A stretch of 51,363 nt of DNA from assembly GCA_000403035.1 (NCBI GenBank), contig AQSL01000164.1, positions 1 through 51,363 of the forward strand, in the 5' to 3' direction. The notes below the pieces were generated by a model. That model ran no database searches. It worked only from the letters and a program-made list of their open reading frames with translations, and had not been told where the DNA came from. Below, in pieces: positions 8,178-47,664 of the stretch (position 1 is its first letter; every line of letters starts with the position of its first letter). Made by a program: the position numbers and the translations under genes. The DNA is from Candidatus Latescibacter anaerobius SCGC AAA252-E07. GTDB lineage: Bacteria; Latescibacterota; Latescibacteria; Latescibacterales; Latescibacteraceae.

Positions 8178-8252
8178 TGGCTGGGGCGGGAGGATTCGAA
8201 CCTCCGAATGCGGGCACCAAAAACCCGTGACTTACCGCTTGTCGACGCCCCA
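8178..8252 (-). tRNA. tRNA-Gln (anticodon UUG), CCA encoded
   Basis: The reverse complement reads TGGGGCG-TC-GACAAGCGGTAAGTC-A-CGGGT-TTTTGGT-GCCCG-CATTC-GGAGG-TTCGAAT-CCTCC-CGCCCCA-G-CCA. It folds as a cloverleaf with anticodon loop UU-UUG-GU and closely resembles E. coli tRNA-Gln. Confidence 0.9.
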
Positions 8253-35748: not shown

Positions 35749-36696
35749 TTATTCCCGGGATTCTATATATTCCATTAAATCTTTTCCGGGTACAGGTAAT
35801 TCGTCAATGTTCTCTTTCAACCAACCGGTAAATTGTCGTTCAATTTCATCAGACCATTTTGCATGTATCTGATTCAGCCCGTACCTTTTTTCAATAATCA
35901 TTTGAATTCCAAATCGGTCTCGCAAACCACCAATTTCAGCCGCTTTGACAACTTTCTCGGCGAGATGCGGCGGAATAAAAACAATACCCTCACGTTTGGC
36001 AAGAACAATATCTCCGGGCATGACCGTTACCTCGCCAATAATGACCGGTACATTGACGCCCATCATCATAACTTCACTCACCGATGCCGGGTGCCAGCTC
36101 CGAACAAACGCATTGAAACCGGGGATGTCTGCTATACCCTCGAGATCACGCACTGAACTGTTAATAATAGCACCTTTTCCGGTTTGTGCAAAAATTTCCG
36201 CGGCATAATTATCACCTATGAGTGCACCTTTTTCATGCTTTCCGAACCCATCAGCGACATATACATCACCCTCCTGCAGTAGTTCTACACCCCGGGAGTA
36301 CAGGTTACCGGTATTGCCGGCATCTTTATTTTTCTCTTCGTTGACTTCATTAACTTGCGGTCGGTACGGCATATACTGTACTGTCAGGGCCCTGCCGACA
36401 AGTACCTGACCGGGATGAACGCATTCCCACTTGCTGCCATCATACTGGTTTCTGTATCCTTCTCCATTCAGCACTCCATACGCAAGAGTAACCGGTACTT
36501 TTTTTATTCTTTCCAGGATATCATCCGAAACTCTTGGACGACCATCAAAAAAGCGCTCACCTGTCCATTCTTTCGTGTATTCAATGAGGTCTTCTTTTGT
36601 AAAATTGTGTACCTGGGCATCGATGGTTAAAGGTATCACACCGCATGTGAAAATAATACCTGCATACAGTACCGGTACGAATGCTTTGAGTTTCAT
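35749..36696 (-). CDS. RraA-family (aldolase/decarboxylase-like) protein with an N-terminal signal peptide
   Basis: EGDVYVADGFGKHEKGALIGDNYAAEIFAQTGKGAIINSSVRD matches the RraA/DlpA fold motif. The N-terminus is MKLKAFVPVLYAGIIFTCGVIPLTIDAQ. Confidence 0.6.
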   Translation of the reverse strand: MKLKAFVPVLYAGIIFTCGVIPLTIDAQVHNFTKEDLIEYTKEWTGERFFDGRPRVSDDILERIKKVPVTLAYGVLNGEGYRNQYDGSKWECVHPGQVLVGRALTVQYMPYRPQVNEVNEEKNKDAGNTGNLYSRGVELLQEGDVYVADGFGKHEKGALIGDNYAAEIFAQTGKGAIINSSVRDLEGIADIPGFNAFVRSWHPASVSEVMMMGVNVPVIIGEVTVMPGDIVLAKREGIVFIPPHLAEKVVKAAEIGGLRDRFGIQMIIEKRYGLNQIHAKWSDEIERQFTGWLKENIDELPVPGKDLMEYIESRE

Positions 36697-36979: not shown

Positions 36980-37055
36980 TGGAGCCAACGGTCGGATTCG
37001 AACCGACTACCTATTCATTACGAGTGAATTGCTCTACCAACTGAGCTACGTTGGC
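36980..37055 (-). tRNA. tRNA-Thr (anticodon CGU), CCA encoded
   Basis: The reverse complement reads GCCAACG-TA-GCTCAGTTGGTAGAGC-A-ATTCA-CTCGTAA-TGAAT-AGGTA-GTCGG-TTCGAAT-CCGAC-CGTTGGC-T-CCA. Confidence 0.9.
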
Positions 37056-37174: not shown

Positions 37175-38347
37175 TCAATACCAGGCGTTCTCAATTCCTG
37201 TCCGGATAAAAGCTTCAAGATTTTCAAGCGGTGTTCCATACTCGATGAAATCAGCATCCTGGAGAATGAACTTCCCGCCGGGTTTGCCGATTTTCATGGT
37301 TTCTTCGGTTACCTTTTTTATCTGGTCAATGGTGCCGTCCTTGATGATATTTACATGGTCGACGCTTCCAAGTATTACATATTCGCCGTTAACCATTTCT
37401 TTTGCTTTCGCAAGATCGGCGTCGCCAAGCGGAGGAGGTGAAAAGGGTTCAACAACTCTGACACCCAGATCCTTATATGATTCTACGAGGTTCATGATTT
37501 CTCCGCAATTATGATACATGCCGGGCGTACCGTTTTCCTGGACAATATCGATATATTTTTTTTCATACGAGAGAATATATTCGTCATAAAATTTCTTTCC
37601 GAGAAAACCGCCGGGGACATTCCCTCCGACACAATGCACATCAACACCGGCAGCATCAATTGCCCTGGTATAATCGATAATTCTGTCCATTGCGAAATTC
37701 ATGAGCTTATCGTAATATGGCTGATCGATGAGAAACAACTGATACAGCTCATCGAGCCGGATAAGTGAAGAGGCATTATTAAATGGGCCATGGGGAGACC
37801 ATGAACCAAGAATTCCGTCATCGCCGAGTGCATCTTTTACTTTTTTAACTCTCTGTTTCACCTGTTCCGGCCAGAATTCAGGCATTCGTGGTTCATACTT
37901 TATAAGAATATCAAGGTCGGATTCTTTTTCGACAGGTTTTTTCGTACATGCAAACATGAATGTACCCGGGCGAATCTCATTGATCGAGAAATCCTGAGTG
38001 AGCGTTCCATCCGGTGTTTTTATTGAAGAACGCTTTATTACTGTGTCCCCATGCTGGATATCCTCGGTATGGACTTCCCAATTTTCGGTCTGCTGGGAAA
38101 CATCCACTCCACCCATGTGAATATGAAGCGGATCGTTAATATCATACAGCATTCTGATAAAAACATCACAACCTAACTGTTTTTGAATCTCGATTACTTT
38201 CAATTGGAGTTGCGTTAAATCCCAGGGATCAATATCTGGATACACCTGGCTAATGAAATGTCCCTGTTCCACAATGAATAAAGTCACCGGGACTCTGTCC
38301 GGCATTTCGCCGTTAAGCACTTTCAAAAATCTTTCGCGTGATGTCAT
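37175..38347 (-). CDS. Uroporphyrinogen decarboxylase (URO-D/MtaA-like) family protein
   Basis: 390 aa. The overall pattern (N-terminal RERFLKVLNGEMPDRVP and a late HNCG motif) is typical of URO-D-family methyltransferase/decarboxylase homologs. Confidence 0.7.
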   Translation of the reverse strand: MTSRERFLKVLNGEMPDRVPVTLFIVEQGHFISQVYPDIDPWDLTQLQLKVIEIQKQLGCDVFIRMLYDINDPLHIHMGGVDVSQQTENWEVHTEDIQHGDTVIKRSSIKTPDGTLTQDFSINEIRPGTFMFACTKKPVEKESDLDILIKYEPRMPEFWPEQVKQRVKKVKDALGDDGILGSWSPHGPFNNASSLIRLDELYQLFLIDQPYYDKLMNFAMDRIIDYTRAIDAAGVDVHCVGGNVPGGFLGKKFYDEYILSYEKKYIDIVQENGTPGMYHNCGEIMNLVESYKDLGVRVVEPFSPPPLGDADLAKAKEMVNGEYVILGSVDHVNIIKDGTIDQIKKVTEETMKIGKPGGKFILQDADFIEYGTPLENLEAFIRTGIENAWY

Positions 38348-38519: not shown

Positions 38520-39488
38520 TTATTTGCTCATACCAAGGGAACTGAGTGACCGTTCCAGAATTGCCAAAATGAGCGATTTGAATGATATTCCCGAAGCTGC
38601 CGCCTGCCTGACAAATATCCCCGAAACGGTCGAAAGTCCCGGGAGCGCATTCACCTCGAGAAGGTAAGGAAGCCCGTTTTTGCCTGTCCTGAAATCAAAT
38701 CGTGCATAATCACGGCATTCGAGAACATTCCAAACCGTTAATGCCATGTTTTCCATTTCAGTGATTCGACTCCTGTCAATTGCAGGAGTCATATCGAGGC
38801 GGTCGGTATTGTGACGTTTGTATTCGTAACTGAAAAATGGAATATCATCCTCATGACCGAGCAGAACCTCACATGTTGTTAATGTATAAGGTGGATTATT
38901 CCCAAGTATTCCAATACAGAAATCGCGTCCTTCCATATAATTCTCAACTAACGCCGGCTGGTTATAATCATTTAGTATTATCGCGATTCTTTCAACAAAG
39001 TCTTCCATGTTCTTAACCAGGGAACAATTATAGATGCCGCGGCTTGAACCATCACAGTTCGGTTTTACAAATGCCGGAAATCCGAACGAAGGCGGTGCAT
39101 CCGGGATTTTATAATAAAGTTCAAATTCTGATGTTCGGATACCGACATCTCTTGCGATACGTTTTGTCAGCGCTTTGTCCATCGTTATACCCAATGTAAC
39201 GGCATCAGAACCGGTACAGGGTATTCCGAGCATACTGCAGATAACGGGAACAAACGATTCCCGGTCACGGTTTCCCCAGCCCTCGGCAATATTGAATAGT
39301 ATATCGGGCCGTTCTTCTGTGATTCGGGTAATGAAGCTCTCGTCGCATGGTAAAGGCACAACCCCGCCTTTCAATGAAAGCACGTCGGATAGAGCATCTA
39401 TCGTATCCGTTGTTTCATACTCTGCATGAGTATCCGTACCTTTCGTGGAAGGATCTTTCAGATTATATGCGAACCCTATCCTGAGCAT
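38520..39488 (-). CDS. ATP-grasp enzyme, D-alanine--D-alanine ligase-like
   Basis: The N-terminal pre-ATP-grasp region is IAEGWGNRDRESFVPVICSMLGIPCTG. KALTKRIA, FVKPNCDGSSRGI and LLEVNALPGL are Ddl-family motifs. Confidence 0.75.
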   Translation of the reverse strand: MLRIGFAYNLKDPSTKGTDTHAEYETTDTIDALSDVLSLKGGVVPLPCDESFITRITEERPDILFNIAEGWGNRDRESFVPVICSMLGIPCTGSDAVTLGITMDKALTKRIARDVGIRTSEFELYYKIPDAPPSFGFPAFVKPNCDGSSRGIYNCSLVKNMEDFVERIAIILNDYNQPALVENYMEGRDFCIGILGNNPPYTLTTCEVLLGHEDDIPFFSYEYKRHNTDRLDMTPAIDRSRITEMENMALTVWNVLECRDYARFDFRTGKNGLPYLLEVNALPGLSTVSGIFVRQAAASGISFKSLILAILERSLSSLGMSK

Positions 39489-40606
39489 TTATTCTCCAGA
39501 GATAAACAGAAATCGTGAATATGCGTTAATGCCTTTTGAAATAAAGCAGGCGGCTGCCCGATATTTAATCTGAAATGGTTTTCAACCTCGAAAGTATTTC
39601 CGGGGAGCACAAAAACACCATGTTTTTGTATCAGTCCCCGTGTAAAATCTTCGCTGAGGAGTTGATAATCATATCGCGGAAAAGCGACTGCCCCACCTTG
39701 AGGAGGAATAAGAGAAAGACCATAAGTATTCTGAACCATCTCTTCCAGCGAGGAGCGATTACTCCGTAGAACAGAACAGTTATTTTCAAGGAAAGCAGGC
39801 GCATTTTCCAGAGCCACCGCGGCGAGAAAATCGCTCACAGGCGACAGAGTATGAGTTATGTAATCCCTGAAATCACGTATCCTGTAAATAAGCGATTGAG
39901 GAGCAACAATCCAGCCCATCCTGAGTCCTACCAGTCCAAAACATTTTGTTATCGACCCGGTGGCGATAACATTTTCATCCGGACGGGCAAACGATGTAAT
40001 CGGCGGATTCCCTCCAACCGGCAGAAATCTGTAATGTTCATCTACAATTACCATGGCACCATGGAATGCGGCTTTTTTCAGAATTTTTCCGGCTACATCA
40101 TCGGGCAGCATACTACCTGATGGATTATGAGGTGTATTTATTACAACCACACCGGTCGTGTCATCAATAAGATTGCATACTTCATCAGGTTCCGGAATAA
40201 ATCTTCTTTTCGAATCAAGATGGTAAAATTTTAATTGAGCGCCCAGGGCCCGCGGGACTTCATACAGCGCCTGGAACGAGGGAAACGGTACAACGACCGA
40301 GGTTCGTTGTTCCAGGCTTATGCAAAAAAGAATAAACAGGGCTTCGCTCGTTCCGGTGGTAACCGTAATGTTTTCAGGATTTATATCATTCCCGTAGGTT
40401 GCGGAAATTGCGCTTCTCAAACGTTCCGTACCACGGGTATCGTTATCTTTCAGAATGAGTTCGGAGATTGATTCGGTGGTTTCGCCACACCTGCTCAGCA
40501 ATTCTCCGACGGTAACATCAGGCATACCGCTTTCGCCAAGATTAAAAGGACAAAAATCCTTGTATTCGGCAAGCCAGTTCTCCATTAAAAAACGACGTAA
40601 TCTCAC
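39476..40606 (-). CDS. Class I/II PLP-dependent aminotransferase
   Basis: NTPHNPSG and SITKCFGLVGLRMGW (PLP lysine) motifs. The start is either GTG 40606 (GTGA overlap with the upstream stop) or ATG 40585. Confidence 0.85.
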   Translation of the reverse strand: MRLRRFLMENWLAEYKDFCPFNLGESGMPDVTVGELLSRCGETTESISELILKDNDTRGTERLRSAISATYGNDINPENITVTTGTSEALFILFCISLEQRTSVVVPFPSFQALYEVPRALGAQLKFYHLDSKRRFIPEPDEVCNLIDDTTGVVVINTPHNPSGSMLPDDVAGKILKKAAFHGAMVIVDEHYRFLPVGGNPPITSFARPDENVIATGSITKCFGLVGLRMGWIVAPQSLIYRIRDFRDYITHTLSPVSDFLAAVALENAPAFLENNCSVLRSNRSSLEEMVQNTYGLSLIPPQGGAVAFPRYDYQLLSEDFTRGLIQKHGVFVLPGNTFEVENHFRLNIGQPPALFQKALTHIHDFCLSLENKCSG

Positions 40607-41715
40607 CGGTTCACTCCGCAGGATAGTGCCGATATAGATTCTACAACCCTCTGTGAGAGGGGTCTCGCATCGGTTTCTTCAAGATATTTGTACCATTCGT
40701 TTATACACTCACAGTATTCATATTCAAGCGATTCAGAATCACGGAATATATTGTACCTATTCAATAAACCATGAATCAATCTCTCCGTACAGGAAGGACA
40801 ACCCACAGGAATTCTGTCAGGCAGAGGCATGTGCACGAAAGGACTGACATAGGGTTTTATGTCCGGAACAACCTGCTTCAATACTTTGTAAATTGAATAA
40901 AGAGAAGGAAGTCTGATACTATTGTGCTTTAATAATAATTCAACAAGTGTATGGCTTTGAAGAGTTATCGGTTCTATATGAATTTCATCTGCGCCCATAT
41001 CACGAGCAGATCGAATTGAAATTACCGCATCCTCAATGGCTTCCGATTCGGTTAAAAACGGTAGTCCTAAAAGTACATATATCTGTGCTTCGGCGATTCC
41101 ATTCAGTGTTTCAACAGCTCTATCAATTTCCAGGAACGTACTTCCCTTGTTGACACAGAGTTCTCTTTTCGTATCATCCGATGTTTCTAAGCCGATTGCA
41201 ATTGATAAAATTTTATTGGGCCCGAGAATTTCCCGCAATAATGCAATGATGTCAGCGTGGACAAATTCAGCGCGGCTTTCCAGAACGACTTTTTTAATCG
41301 AATGAAACTTCCCTATTTCTGCCAGAATGTCTTTCAGTGCCTCGAAGTTCAATTCGGAAGGGTTCAATACCGACCCGGAATTATAGAGCGAAATGATGGA
41401 TATATGTTTCATGTCATATTTTGCAATTTCGCTGCGAAATTGTACCACCGTCTCATCGACTGTCGGAACACCGCCCTGAAGGGTGCCGGCATAATGCCCG
41501 CACATTACGCAACCGCCACCACGCTTCACCCAGGTACATCCCGGCCCTCGTAACGTAATAACAAGACGATTTACCGGCTGACCGTTTAGATAGCCGGTAC
41601 GAATATCCGATGAGGCTGCCCTGTCGTGGGGAAAAGAGGTGATTGGCGTGGCTGCCCGAATGGAGCGCATTACACTCCGGAGAGCTTCAACTGACGTTTT
41701 ACATACCGTTTTCAT
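40603..41715 (-). CDS. Radical SAM enzyme with atypical Cx8Cx2C spacing (possibly TIGR01210/RaSEA-like group)
   Basis: The only cluster-like motif is GPGCTWVKRGGGCVMCGH. An Elp3-type TIM-barrel-like middle region follows (SIISLYNSGS, GLETSD). The C-terminus has CPSC...CEC cysteines. Confidence 0.65.
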   Translation of the reverse strand: MKTVCKTSVEALRSVMRSIRAATPITSFPHDRAASSDIRTGYLNGQPVNRLVITLRGPGCTWVKRGGGCVMCGHYAGTLQGGVPTVDETVVQFRSEIAKYDMKHISIISLYNSGSVLNPSELNFEALKDILAEIGKFHSIKKVVLESRAEFVHADIIALLREILGPNKILSIAIGLETSDDTKRELCVNKGSTFLEIDRAVETLNGIAEAQIYVLLGLPFLTESEAIEDAVISIRSARDMGADEIHIEPITLQSHTLVELLLKHNSIRLPSLYSIYKVLKQVVPDIKPYVSPFVHMPLPDRIPVGCPSCTERLIHGLLNRYNIFRDSESLEYEYCECINEWYKYLEETDARPLSQRVVESISALSCGVNR

Positions 41716-42353
41716 TCGAAAAAATATATACGTTTTTCACTTTTTTTACAAATGATTTCAATTTCTTTTGTTGTTACAAAGTTCATAATCATTACTGTTA
41801 TTCATCATGATGCTCTTTTAATAAATGTATTGAGTTACACTGATACTATTCGAATTATATATGATTATATATTGATAATTTTTAAGTTCTGTAAAAAAAA
41901 CAATCAAGTTTCATGTTTAATCTGTCGAGGGTCACCGTGAAGTTTTCATTTACATGCACTTGTCAGTAACACATGATTATACTATTTACTAATTACAAAA
42001 CAATTATTTAATTCTTATCATTGATACTGATTTCCCGTTTTCGTAATCTATTGTAAAAATAATCTATATAAAGAGCACAACACAATTTTATTCATTCATA
42101 CATGGATTTTCAAGGATTATCTGTAATCCTCTGCAAATCCGATTTTCAAACATATCATCTTAATACAAAATTGTTTATCTTGACCATACATGCTAAATAC
42201 TATATTATTAGACATCCGTGAAAAATATTTTTCATTTAAAAAAGTGTAAATTGTGCAGTTACTAAAAAAACATACTATTTGTTTTTTTCGATTACATCAA
42301 GATTAAAAAGTCAAGTATTTTAATGTACAAATACCTTTAGTATAAGGCAAAAT

Positions 42354-45285: not shown

Positions 45286-46662
45286 ATGAAACATCAACGA
45301 AAACCAATACTTAAAAAAATAACTGCCTTTTTTATACATTTATCCATACAGCGAAGGATAACTGCAGCTATATTTTTAGCATTTATACTTATTCTTCCCT
45401 CGGTATTCATGTCGTTGTTCTATTTTTCCAGTCTTTTAGAGGAAATTACGATAATCATCGAAACAGATGTAAAACTGGGAAAAATGGCGAATGATCTTTC
45501 ATTGACAATGCTCGATATAAGGCGTTATGAGAGAAACTACCTGGTATTCGGCAGTGCGGCAGAACGTGAGAAGGTTGAAAAATTAATTGTACATGCCGAT
45601 TCAGCACTCAAAATTGCCTATGAAATCGCGCCTGAATCCGAGCGGAAATCGGTACAAGAGCTTTCCCGGCAATTTACCGTGTATTCCAACAGTTTCAGTA
45701 TGCTTGTTGAACACACTTTGCAAAACCCTCCGGAAGACAGGATTAACACCATTAAAAACCGTTTTTCAAAAAGCTTCAATGAATTCCAGTCAAATTACAG
45801 ACATATTCTCACCATGCTCAATCAGGCCTCGGAGGCAGAAAGGGATTCGATCATCGCCATAGCTAGCGAGCATCTGGATGCCTCATCATTTGACAGGCTT
45901 ATCAACATTGAAACTTCTTCGGATCAATCCGTACTGCCGTCCTACATCCAGGAAAATCTTGACAATTCCCGGCAGTCTTTTCTGCTACTGGCGCATGATC
46001 TTGCAGAAAAAAGCTGGAAAAATGTGTTAACCCGAAAAAACGAAAGCCAGCGTATAGAAGCACGGGCAATACGTAATATTTTATCCGTCCTTATACTGAC
46101 CGGCATTATCTGTATTTTTTTAGTCACACTGCTGCCCAAAAGAATTGTCAGACCTATTAAAGTATTAAACCGGATTTTAAAACATGCCGGGAAGGGAGAT
46201 TTCAGTACACAGGCGCCTATTTACACCAATGACGAAATTGGCGAGCTTGCAGGTAACTATAATGATGTGCTGGATCAATTGCGGCTTTATGATAACCTCA
46301 AAACAGGTAAAATTGCTTCCCAGAAACGTATCCTGGACCGTCTGCTGGAAAATCTTCCCATGCCGGTATGTATCGTGACCGTTAATTTCATTGCTCCTTT
46401 TTATAACACATCGTTTGCACAAATTTTTGGTTCATCCGTGCCTGTTAAACCTCCTGATGGAGGTCTGGAAATTGAAAATATTGAAGTGATGAATAATTTT
46501 GCAGATGAACTCAAGAAAAAAATGTCGGGTACAAAAAATAACATTTTTCTTGATATACATGACCGTGACGGTGAGGTTGTCAAGTTAAAAGGACGTCTTA
46601 TCCGAAATTCCGTTATGGAACTTGAATCTGTTGTTATCGTCGGTGTTTCCGAAAAAACTTAA
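45286..46662 (+). CDS. Membrane sensor protein: helical periplasmic domain, HAMP, PAS-like C-terminus and no recognisable output domain
   Basis: Two TM segments. The HAMP segment is PIKVLNRILKHAGKGDFSTQAPIYTNDEIGELAGNYNDVLDQL. No H-box, GGDEF or MCP signalling motifs are seen. Confidence 0.65.
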   Translation: MKHQRKPILKKITAFFIHLSIQRRITAAIFLAFILILPSVFMSLFYFSSLLEEITIIIETDVKLGKMANDLSLTMLDIRRYERNYLVFGSAAEREKVEKLIVHADSALKIAYEIAPESERKSVQELSRQFTVYSNSFSMLVEHTLQNPPEDRINTIKNRFSKSFNEFQSNYRHILTMLNQASEAERDSIIAIASEHLDASSFDRLINIETSSDQSVLPSYIQENLDNSRQSFLLLAHDLAEKSWKNVLTRKNESQRIEARAIRNILSVLILTGIICIFLVTLLPKRIVRPIKVLNRILKHAGKGDFSTQAPIYTNDEIGELAGNYNDVLDQLRLYDNLKTGKIASQKRILDRLLENLPMPVCIVTVNFIAPFYNTSFAQIFGSSVPVKPPDGGLEIENIEVMNNFADELKKKMSGTKNNIFLDIHDRDGEVVKLKGRLIRNSVMELESVVIVGVSEKT

Positions 46663-46665
46663 AAA

Positions 46666-47664
46666 ATGGGGATAATTATTTTGGAGCGTATAGGAATAAC
46701 TACCACTATCCCTTCCGAAGTTGTATGGGCTGCAGGCGCAGTCCCGGTTGACCTTAACAATTTGTTCATAACCTCGGAACGCCGGAAAGAGTATATAAAA
46801 ACGGCCGAACGCGATGGATATCCCCGTAATATATGTGCATGGATAAAAGGTATGTACGGCGCTTTGCAGTACCATTCTGACATTAAGACTGTTATTGCGG
46901 TAATCCAGGGAGACTGTTCAAATACCCATGCGCTCATGGAAACGCTGCAACTCAAGGGTATCACCACAATCCCATTCGCTTATCCCTACAATCATAATGC
47001 ACAGACGATTGCATATGAAATATCACATCTTGCCGAAAAACTCGGTACGGATATGGACTCTGCCGAAAAAATGCTAAAAAAACTCAACCCAGTCCGCTTG
47101 CTGCTTGACCGGCTCGATAACATGACATGGAGGGATAACCGGGTAACCGGTTACGAAAACCATTTATGGCTCGTGACATCAAGCGATTTCAACGGTGATA
47201 TTGAGAAGTATTCACGGGAGCTTTCCATTTTTCTCGATACGGCGCAGAAACGAACTCCATGCAAAGATTCCGTTCGTCTCGGATACATCGGCGTTCCACC
47301 CATACTCGATGATATTTATTCCTTTGTCGAAGAGTATGGCGCACGGTTTGTGTTTAACGAGGTACAGCGTCAGTTTTCACTGCCAAAACGTACGGGCGGG
47401 CTTGTAGAACACTATCTCGCCTATACCTATCCCTACGATATTTTTCACCGGCTTGATTATATAATTCCCGAACTTAAGCGCCGTAGAATTCAGGGTGTCG
47501 TTCATTATGTACAGAGTTTCTGCCACCGTCACATCGAGGACCTGATTATTCGTAAAATAATTGCACAGCCAGTGCTGACCATCGAGGGCGAATCCCCGGG
47601 GTACGTTGACGAGCGTACAAAAATACGCCTGCAGGCATTTATTGAAATGCTTGAAGCACAATAA
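46666..47664 (+). CDS. 2-hydroxyacyl-CoA dehydratase family protein (HgdB/BcrC-like)
   Basis: 332 aa with conserved Cys contexts (IQGDCSNTHALMETL, YVQSFCHRH). The N-terminus TTTIPSEVVWAAGAVPVDL is typical of the family. Confidence 0.7.
   Translation: MGIIILERIGITTTIPSEVVWAAGAVPVDLNNLFITSERRKEYIKTAERDGYPRNICAWIKGMYGALQYHSDIKTVIAVIQGDCSNTHALMETLQLKGITTIPFAYPYNHNAQTIAYEISHLAEKLGTDMDSAEKMLKKLNPVRLLLDRLDNMTWRDNRVTGYENHLWLVTSSDFNGDIEKYSRELSIFLDTAQKRTPCKDSVRLGYIGVPPILDDIYSFVEEYGARFVFNEVQRQFSLPKRTGGLVEHYLAYTYPYDIFHRLDYIIPELKRRRIQGVVHYVQSFCHRHIEDLIIRKIIAQPVLTIEGESPGYVDERTKIRLQAFIEMLEAQ

Follow-up and report, generated by a model that had tools for sequence, protein, structure and literature searches.

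The stretch of DNA analyzed here, called the window below, comprises 51,363 nucleotides of contig AQSL01000164.1 from Candidatus Latescibacter anaerobius SCGC AAA252-E07 and contains a compact cassette of three minus-strand genes. These encode a radical S-adenosylmethionine (SAM) enzyme, a pyridoxal 5'-phosphate (PLP) enzyme, and an ATP-grasp ligase. In the list of open reading frames, the radical SAM gene occupies positions 40603–41715 (370 amino acids, ATG start), the PLP-enzyme gene 39476–40606 (376 amino acids, GTG start), and the ligase gene 38520–39488 (322 amino acids, ATG start). The most informative clue to the cassette is the kinship of its PLP enzyme with arginine cyclases.

A first-pass annotation of this DNA had described the triad as tightly packed, and the junctions, read directly from the minus strand, agree with it. 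The radical SAM gene ends in GGA GTG AAC CGG TGA, whose GTG opens the PLP gene, and the TGA stop and GTG start share the four nucleotides GTGA at 40603–40606. The PLP gene ends in AAA TGC TCA GGA TAG, with the TAG stop at 39478–39476, and overlaps the start of the ligase gene by 13 nucleotides (39476–39488). The ligase ATG lies at 39488–39486 and is preceded by a GGAG located 6 nucleotides to its 5' side. The GTG start of the PLP gene is backed by homology, since it places the N-terminus at the helix (MKI..FLMExWL) with which GntC and nearly every homologue start. This helix bears Glu9, which is conserved and catalytically important.

The intergenic region at 41716–42353, to which no strand is assigned, separates the cassette from the divergent trkH gene and is presumed to be the promoter region. 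Promoter and terminator scans around the cassette gave consensus-like matches no more frequently than in shuffled sequence, and an Rfam search upstream of the cassette found no riboswitch or other RNA family. In the window, the flanks of the cassette hold trkH/trkA, a gene for a PD40 beta-propeller protein, and genes for FBP aldolase and PfkB. The closest database proteins come from a metagenome (95–96% identity), followed by proteins of Latescibacterota metagenome-assembled genomes at about 60–65%. We read the three genes as a single translationally coupled operon for a small-molecule pathway that has a conserved module of two enzymes, the radical SAM and PLP enzymes, at its center.

The PLP enzyme has fold-type I, matches PF00155 with 149 bits, and carries the generic annotation of a class I/II aminotransferase. 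The first-pass annotation had chosen the same label, which is right for the superfamily but misses the actual placement. Judged by its sequence, the protein is a member of the GntC/VioD/OrfR arginine-cyclase branch and not an ordinary transaminase. It scores 311.4 bits against the GntC model NF041364 (cut-off 415), 234.6 bits against the VioD model TIGR03947 (cut-off 390.9), and 238 bits against the uncharacterized PRK07324. Its matches in the PDB are, in order, GntC (8FFT, 266 bits), an uncharacterized Streptococcus suis enzyme (3OP7), and OrfR (4M2J). With a profile of the PLP family, GntC scores 454 bits, 3OP7 272, and OrfR 237.

The active site of GntC offers a basis for comparison. Its K219 binds PLP and acts as a base, while E9 and S25/S26 are common to the three known arginine cyclases (PMC10367076). 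T84 and H250 shape the guanidinium pocket, N52 recognizes the gamma-hydroxyl leaving group, F108 stacks on PLP, and R346 binds the carboxylate; the N52D mutation reduces activity (PMC10367076). The window enzyme keeps E9, S25, F108, N158, D186, Y189, K219, R227, H250, and R346. Three positions are changed, namely T84 to Ser, which is conservative, S26 to Gly, and N52 to Asp. In the numbering of the window enzyme itself, the Asp at position 52 is Asp54, and the counterpart of H250 is His252.

The pocket residues differ between PLP homologues with and without a radical SAM gene upstream. Ser84, Phe108, and His250 are present in all 24 linked enzymes, and position 52 is Asp in 18 of them, the window enzyme included, and Asn in the other 6, including the Sorangium enzyme linked to a non-ribosomal peptide synthetase (NRPS). 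Among 46 unlinked homologues, positions 52 and 250 are Tyr and Ile in 33, position 84 is Ala in 20, and position 108 is Tyr in 28. Glu9 is invariant across both sets. The metagenome loci were gathered with a search pattern that included the S25-G26 segment, so the invariance of this segment there arises by construction and carries no weight. The best reading of these sequence patterns is that the pocket signature tracks the radical SAM linkage and points to an arginine-like substrate.

The conservation of the gene order was followed in two scans. The first was anchored on the radical SAM enzyme, used one genome per species, and gave 23 loci; a narrow alignment served as the query because a 14-sequence alignment was too diverse. 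The second was a metagenome scan anchored on the PLP enzyme and gave 80 further loci. Linkage was counted over both scans combined, at loci with at least 900 nucleotides of flank on the relevant side. Where the PLP enzyme is at least 55% identical to that of the window, 9/10 loci have the radical SAM gene directly upstream and 10/10 have the ligase gene directly downstream. At 35–55% identity the corresponding counts are 15/24 and 5/21, with NRPS genes in 8 loci, and below 35% they fall to 1/38 and 0/32. The three-gene arrangement is therefore far above chance, and the earlier view of the triad as a real conserved unit holds.

In the scan anchored on the radical SAM enzyme, tblastn recovered the order radical SAM, PLP, ligase in four members of Latescibacterota and in one each of Nitrospirota and an unclassified bacterium. 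The triad loci are L002, L004, L005, L006, and L029–L038 in Latescibacterota, L007 in Nitrospirota, and L008 in the unclassified bacterium. A Thermodesulfobacteriota locus (L010) has the radical SAM/PLP pair on a contig that stops after the PLP gene, and the distant radical SAM homologues of archaea, Clostridia, and Gammaproteobacteria have other neighbors. The triads of Latescibacterota are flanked by apt upstream and a DsbD-like gene downstream; both are housekeeping genes that recur only within this phylum, and the flanks are unrelated in the Nitrospirota and unclassified-bacterium loci. Within Latescibacterota, the cassette looks vertically inherited and part of the core gene set, and it lies outside any recognizable biosynthetic cluster.

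The conserved core is the radical SAM/PLP pair, which also occurs in other settings. Sorangium sp. So ce295 (L026), in which the pair lies at about 4.670–4.673 Mb of CP150324.1, has the order NRPS, radical SAM, PLP enzyme, CmlA-like beta-hydroxylase, NRPS, polyketide synthase. Its radical SAM protein (395 amino acids) is 30% and its PLP enzyme 46% identical to those of the window, and the two genes overlap by 4 nucleotides. The pair is also flanked by NRPS genes in six metagenome loci (L043, L044, L046, L051, L052, and L092), and in P0364 and P0368 (~760 amino acids) it is fused into one protein with the radical SAM part N-terminal and the PLP part C-terminal. As the adenylation domains of an NRPS accept amino acids in free form, the most straightforward role of the pair in these clusters would be to make a free non-proteinogenic amino acid. 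The adenylation codes, searched with motif regular expressions, could be read for three modules (Gly-like, Leu-like, and unclear), none assignable to an unusual amino acid. A PRMT5-type arginine N-methyltransferase is encoded by the gene after the PLP gene in L052 and occurs as a domain within the Sorangium NRPS. A Pfam search near the pair found no arginine hydroxylase partner of the GntB, VioC, or OrfP type, and the sole oxygenase is the CmlA-like gene downstream in L026 and L049. As a separate observation, the gene for the fusion protein P0364 stands in a row with four more radical SAM genes, one MiaB-like and one B12-binding, and a GATase gene (L109, 6592–14651).

A single NCBIfam model, TIGR01210 for the archaeosine biosynthesis enzyme RaSEA, matches the radical SAM enzyme. 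The score of 197.6 bits falls just short of the cut-off (212.15), and the match is in line with the RaSEA-type assignment suggested earlier. Its match to PF04055 of Pfam is weak (21 bits). The unusual motif of the family, C-x8-C-x2-C, is formed by C60, C69, and C72, and four further conserved cysteines lie toward the C-terminus (C306, C309, C335, and C337). All seven cysteines are kept in every aligned sequence, including the protein of the archaeal locus L012, which passes the RaSEA cut-off. The TIGR01210 scores are 252 bits for this archaeal protein, 226 for the homologue embedded in the NRPS locus L052, and 177–205 for the other bacterial and archaeal homologues. Two homologues of 406–407 amino acids, P0086 and P0108, were considered as true archaeal RaSEA and rejected, as their scores are also below the cut-off.

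The AlphaFold model of the radical SAM enzyme has a predicted local distance difference test score (pLDDT) of 94, and Foldseek returns a generic radical SAM barrel, closest to Elp3, TsrM, and HydE, with template modeling (TM) scores of 0.4–0.5. A sequence search of the PDB with this enzyme gave no relative. The family is small: of 1.84 billion cluster representatives, 154 match it at E ≤ 1e-30. In a rough neighbor-joining tree, the triad-type enzymes adjoin the archaeal protein whose score exceeds the RaSEA cut-off, and the NRPS-linked ones fall into two other groups. Triad-type and archaeal members have His at residue 74, directly after the CxxC of the cluster motif (MCGH), whereas all NRPS-linked members that cover the position have Phe, as do the enzymes of L056 and L086, two loci with the pair only. 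This residue may mark a subfamily.

RaSEA is the only characterized member of the family and acts on preQ0-Lys, an N-alkyl amidine of lysine (PMC11298593). The window enzyme shares with the ArcS-RaSEA system of archaeosine synthesis in Euryarchaeota the radical SAM family, the C-x8-C-x2-C motif, and the four C-terminal cysteines, and a guanidino amino acid is similar to the RaSEA substrate, in which the side chain of an amino acid carries an N-linked amidine. A bacterial archaeosine-like pathway of tRNA or RNA modification could be argued from TIGR01210 as the sole NCBIfam match, from source annotations that carry the archaeosine synthase name (the Joint Genome Institute labels several Latescibacterota homologues "archaeosine synthase beta-subunit"), and from a tRNA-Thr gene ~1.5 kb downstream of the cassette. 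Yet the score of the window enzyme is under the equivalog cut-off, and tblastn and Pfam searches found no ArcS, TGT, or 7-deazaguanine-synthesis gene adjoining the cassette in any of the examined loci. In contrast to the archaeal system, the gene context of the window enzyme shows no link to tRNA modification, and the constant partners are a PLP enzyme for free amino acids, homologous to cyclases, and a small-molecule ligase or an NRPS. Because the NRPS-embedded homologue of L052 also exceeds the cut-off, passing it is no guarantee of function. The gene context thus gives no support to tRNA modification, and we consider it extremely unlikely.

Several other members of the RaSEA-like family were noted during the scans. 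The radical SAM gene of L052 (82–1074) is above the RaSEA equivalog cut-off in its NRPS setting, and automatic pipelines would name it an archaeosine enzyme. In P0394 (L111, 8001–10037), a RaSEA-like radical SAM domain is fused to a DDAH-type guanidino-modifying domain, and a B3_4-domain gene follows. RaSEA-like domains are also fused to a TIR domain in P0444 and to an ABC-ATPase/NMT1-like region in P0463. Consecutive genes of the archaeal locus L016 (1556–6650) encode a radical SAM enzyme that binds B12, an adenylating ligase similar to PaaK, a RaSEA-like radical SAM enzyme, and a threonine-synthase-like PLP enzyme, which makes this locus a further pairing of the family with a PLP enzyme. The RaSEA-like family holds several unexplored bacterial functions.

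Membership of the RaSEA family also invites a reading in which the cassette works as a nitrogen donor. Here the ATP-grasp enzyme would first attach an amino acid, through its side-chain amine, to an acceptor such as a carboxylate. Cleavage of the N–C bond by the radical SAM enzyme would leave a primary amide or amidine on this acceptor, and the PLP enzyme would recycle or supply the amino-acid handle. The precedent is that RaSEA strips the lysine skeleton from preQ0-Lys (PMC11298593), and the window enzyme groups with the archaeal L012 protein that scores above the cut-off (252 bits). However, at least 8 NRPS-type loci have the pair but no ATP-grasp enzyme, and the pair also exists as a fusion protein. 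The ligase is therefore an accessory part, and an order in which ligation comes first, as the first-pass annotation had suggested by analogy with archaeosine, is disfavored. Against nitrogen donation also stands the GntC-type pocket for a free guanidino amino acid that the PLP enzyme retains, and no acceptor-making gene is conserved near the cassette. Taken together, it is rather unlikely.

The third protein matches PF07478 with 110.8 bits, and its best D-alanine–D-alanine ligase (Ddl) model, PRK01372, gives 146.7 bits against a cut-off of 243; all Ddl models are below their cut-offs. Its structural model (pLDDT 93.7) has the full three-domain Ddl fold in Foldseek, with a TM score of about 0.8 to DdlB. 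The comparison of residues uses the E. coli DdlB sequence and numbering. On this basis the ligase keeps the ATP/Mg and acyl-phosphate residues K144, S150, K215, R255, D257, E270, and N272, Y216 is replaced by Arg, and the N-terminal 39 residues do not align with the segment that carries the D-Ala1 site (E15 in GGxSxE). Because the ATP residues are kept while the D-Ala1 segment is unaligned, Y216 is Arg, and the scores are below cut-off, the protein is best described as a Ddl-fold small-molecule ligase with a different substrate, as had been suspected. It resembles Ddl and the Ddl-fold ligases PylC and MysD in its complete fold and catalytic residues, and differs from Ddl in all the points above; moreover, a KamA aminomutase is fused to some of its orthologues, an arrangement that is not known from any Ddl.

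The same data bear on a cell-wall role, in which the ligase would make D-Ala-D-X or X-D-Ala for peptidoglycan and the PLP and radical SAM enzymes would supply an unusual (D-)amino acid. The full Ddl fold with its ATP-grasp catalytic residues would suit such a role, as would a cassette that appears core and vertically inherited in Latescibacterota with housekeeping flanks. Against this stand the Ddl scores far under cut-off, the unaligned D-Ala1-binding segment with Arg for Y216, a PLP enzyme that is neither a racemase nor a class IV D-amino-acid transaminase, and the lack of mur genes near the cassette. A cell-wall variant is quite unlikely on this evidence, and the earlier preference for a small-molecule or amino-acid-conjugate role over peptidoglycan synthesis fits the altered D-Ala1 site and the scores better.

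In the Nitrospirota-type loci L007, L008, L039, and L040, the ligase is ~700 amino acids long and its C-terminal half is a KamA-family 2,3-aminomutase. This domain scores 260–266 bits on TIGR00238, above the cut-off of 199, and the lysine, glutamate, and arginine 2,3-aminomutase equivalogs score alike, every one under its cut-off. Compared with lysine 2,3-aminomutase (2A5H), the lysine-binding D293 is replaced by Gln and D330 is kept, unlike the lysine pattern (D, D). It also does not fit the glutamate 2,3-aminomutase pattern (K, N). From these residues, the substrate of the fused domain is probably not plain lysine. No KamA gene was found in the window by tblastn. A further locus, L025 (4101–8002), encodes an ATP-grasp enzyme (384 amino acids), a GNAT acetyltransferase, a KamA-type aminomutase (477 amino acids), and a Ddl-like ATP-grasp enzyme. 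The last of these is 38% identical to the window ligase and has the separate KamA gene beside it; this cluster may make an acetylated beta-amino-acid peptide. Given the KamA fusions and the KamA neighbor in L025, the ligase family repeatedly partners beta-amino-acid formation.

A radical SAM enzyme, a Ddl-family ATP-grasp ligase, and an amine-processing enzyme are also the classes found in pyrrolysine synthesis (PylB, PylC, and PylD). In an analogous route, a radical SAM mutase would rearrange one amino acid, the Ddl-like ligase would join a second, and the PLP enzyme would turn the terminal amine into a cyclizing aldehyde; the KamA-type mutase fused to the ligase in some lineages and the MtaA-like methyltransferase gene downstream in the window would add to the likeness. 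The individual proteins do not follow it. PylB is a distant structural match only (Foldseek rank 34, TM 0.47), PylC is not among the PDB sequence matches of the ligase at E ≤ 1e-5, and the PLP enzyme is GntC-like and not an omega-transaminase. The MtaA-like gene, which the first-pass annotation had correctly located 172 bp downstream, is absent next to the triad in every other locus. A pyrrolysine-like route is very unlikely.

The reading we prefer starts from the arginine-cyclase kinship of the PLP enzyme. The radical SAM/PLP pair holds the genetic position of the hydroxylase and cyclase pairs GntB/GntC, VioC/VioD, and OrfP/OrfR, and for this reason we infer a three-step route. In the first step, the radical SAM enzyme would act without O2 on a free guanidino amino acid, likeliest L-arginine, and activate its side chain by means of a 5'-deoxyadenosyl radical. 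The enzyme would stand in for the oxygenase (GntB, VioC, or OrfP) of cyclic-arginine pathways. RaSEA-like N–CH2 chemistry on arginine would oxidize C-delta to give an imine or 4,5-dehydro-arginine. Such a dehydro-arginine would correspond to gamma-hydroxy-arginine minus water, making the two-electron oxidation redox-equivalent to hydroxylation plus dehydration. Hints of guanidino chemistry come from the PRMT5-type neighbors in L052 and Sorangium, the DDAH-type fusion P0394, and the amidine substrate of RaSEA.

In the second step, which is proposed from homology, the GntC-like PLP enzyme would hold the substrate by its alpha-amine, and the PLP electron sink would let the guanidine attack the side chain. 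Deprotonation of C-alpha and C-beta and reprotonation of C-delta would lead to the beta,gamma-unsaturated ketimine that GntC reaches through dehydration. An Asp in place of Asn52 would suit a substrate without a hydroxyl. The product would be an enduracididine- or capreomycidine-type cyclic guanidino amino acid. The least to be expected of the enzyme would be an elimination or replacement at the beta or gamma position of a substrate that resembles arginine. In the third step, which like the first is a proposal, the ATP-grasp enzyme would make an acyl phosphate from a carboxylate and join the product and a second amino acid into a dipeptide-like compound. In the Nitrospirota type, the KamA fusion would make one partner a beta-amino acid. 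The identity of the substrate, the chemistry and order of the steps, the product, and its physiological role are all what we infer from the genes and their relatives.

The resemblance to known systems is closest for GntB/GntC, which supply L-enduracididine from L-arginine for guanitoxin. The window PLP enzyme is nearest to GntC, keeps E9, S25, F108, K219, H250, and R346, and has a partner encoded directly upstream, where an arginine activator would be expected. That partner is a radical SAM enzyme and not a transmembrane hydroxylase as in GntB, and the PLP enzyme differs from GntC in the Asp at Asn52, in its score of 311 against the cut-off of 415, and in the ATP-grasp ligase gene that follows. 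VioC/VioD of viomycin and OrfP/OrfR of streptothricin, which lead to capreomycidine-type residues, likewise combine a side-chain activator with a fold-type-I PLP cyclase that feeds peptide assembly, and relatives of the window pair are likewise found in NRPS clusters. Unlike the window enzyme, their activators are O2-dependent Fe/2-oxoglutarate oxygenases; joining in the window would be by ATP-grasp and not by an NRPS, and OrfR is without an equivalent of H250. Viomycin and streptothricin contain beta-lysine made by a KamA-type mutase, which is echoed by the KamA fusion of the Nitrospirota-type ligase. We rate the cassette as resembling the pathways for cyclic or modified arginine building blocks, with the radical SAM enzyme replacing the oxygenase and the ATP-grasp ligase replacing the NRPS. 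No characterized pathway with this gene set was known to the first-pass annotation, and full-text literature searches, which do not cover subscription journals, found no account of it or of bacterial RaSEA homologues.

A number of observations weigh against this route. The Asn52 that recognizes the gamma-hydroxyl in GntC is replaced by Asp in the window enzyme; the substrate or leaving group therefore differs from that of GntC, and ring closure is not assured. The fused radical SAM/PLP proteins have L250 and Y108 and may use another substrate. The cassette of the window and of other Latescibacterota has housekeeping genes around it (apt, DsbD-like, trkH/trkA), and neither a transporter nor a regulator accompanies it. 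One close locus (L030) is without a radical SAM gene upstream, and in some Myxococcota (L009, L011, L028, and L041) the two genes are unlinked. All three proteins are below the curated cut-offs of the named families, and we know of no radical SAM arginine desaturase or oxidase. The order of the steps relative to the ligase is tentative, and we regard the explanation as a whole, from the operon to the dipeptide-like product, as about as likely as not.

With these points weighed, we tentatively propose, at clearly less than even confidence, that a bacterial RaSEA-family enzyme acting on free arginine serves as an O2-independent substitute for a hydroxylase. Together with a GntC-like cyclase, it would make enduracididine- or capreomycidine-type cyclic guanidino amino acids anaerobically. 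These would enter NRPS products in Sorangium and others or, in Latescibacterota and Nitrospirota, a (beta-)dipeptide formed by the ATP-grasp ligase with or without the fused 2,3-aminomutase, which would be a near-universal trait of Latescibacterota.

Other genes of the window were also inspected. The URO-D/MtaA-CmuA-like protein (37175–38347, minus strand, 390 amino acids) is below all curated cut-offs (TIGR01463, 93.7 against 235 bits), and only its C-terminal ~220 residues match. A tRNA-Thr(CGT) gene at 36980–37055 lies on the strand of the cassette between this gene and that for an RraA/aldolase-like protein (35749–36696, minus strand). At 315 amino acids, the latter is about double the usual length, and its hydrophobic N-terminus resembles a signal peptide or membrane anchor, which is odd for a cytoplasmic family. 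The URO-D/MtaA-like and RraA-like genes were considered as pathway members and rejected because they are absent from every other triad locus. A tRNA-Gln(TTG) gene is found at 8178–8252 on the minus strand. On the plus strand, 45286–47664 encodes a HAMP-domain membrane protein followed immediately by a homologue of the 2-hydroxyglutaryl-CoA dehydratase D-component, for which no activator or partner subunit was found among the scanned neighbors.

In teixobactin, mannopeptimycin, viomycin, and streptothricin, residues of cyclic arginine act as key pharmacophores, and such residues are hard to make. To our knowledge, all known routes to them require O2-dependent enzymes or a PLP oxidase. If the proposed route is true, the two-gene module would be a new, oxygen-independent biocatalytic route to cyclic arginines and would give RaSEA-type enzymes their first small-molecule function, and the proposal is directly testable with two or three recombinant proteins. 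The bacterial genes now labeled "archaeosine synthase beta-subunit", "aminotransferase", and "D-alanine-D-alanine ligase" in these cassettes would then need re-annotation. The radical SAM/PLP pair is also a handle for mining the NRPS clusters of myxobacteria. In the uncultured Latescibacterota, the cassette points to a widely conserved, undescribed metabolite.

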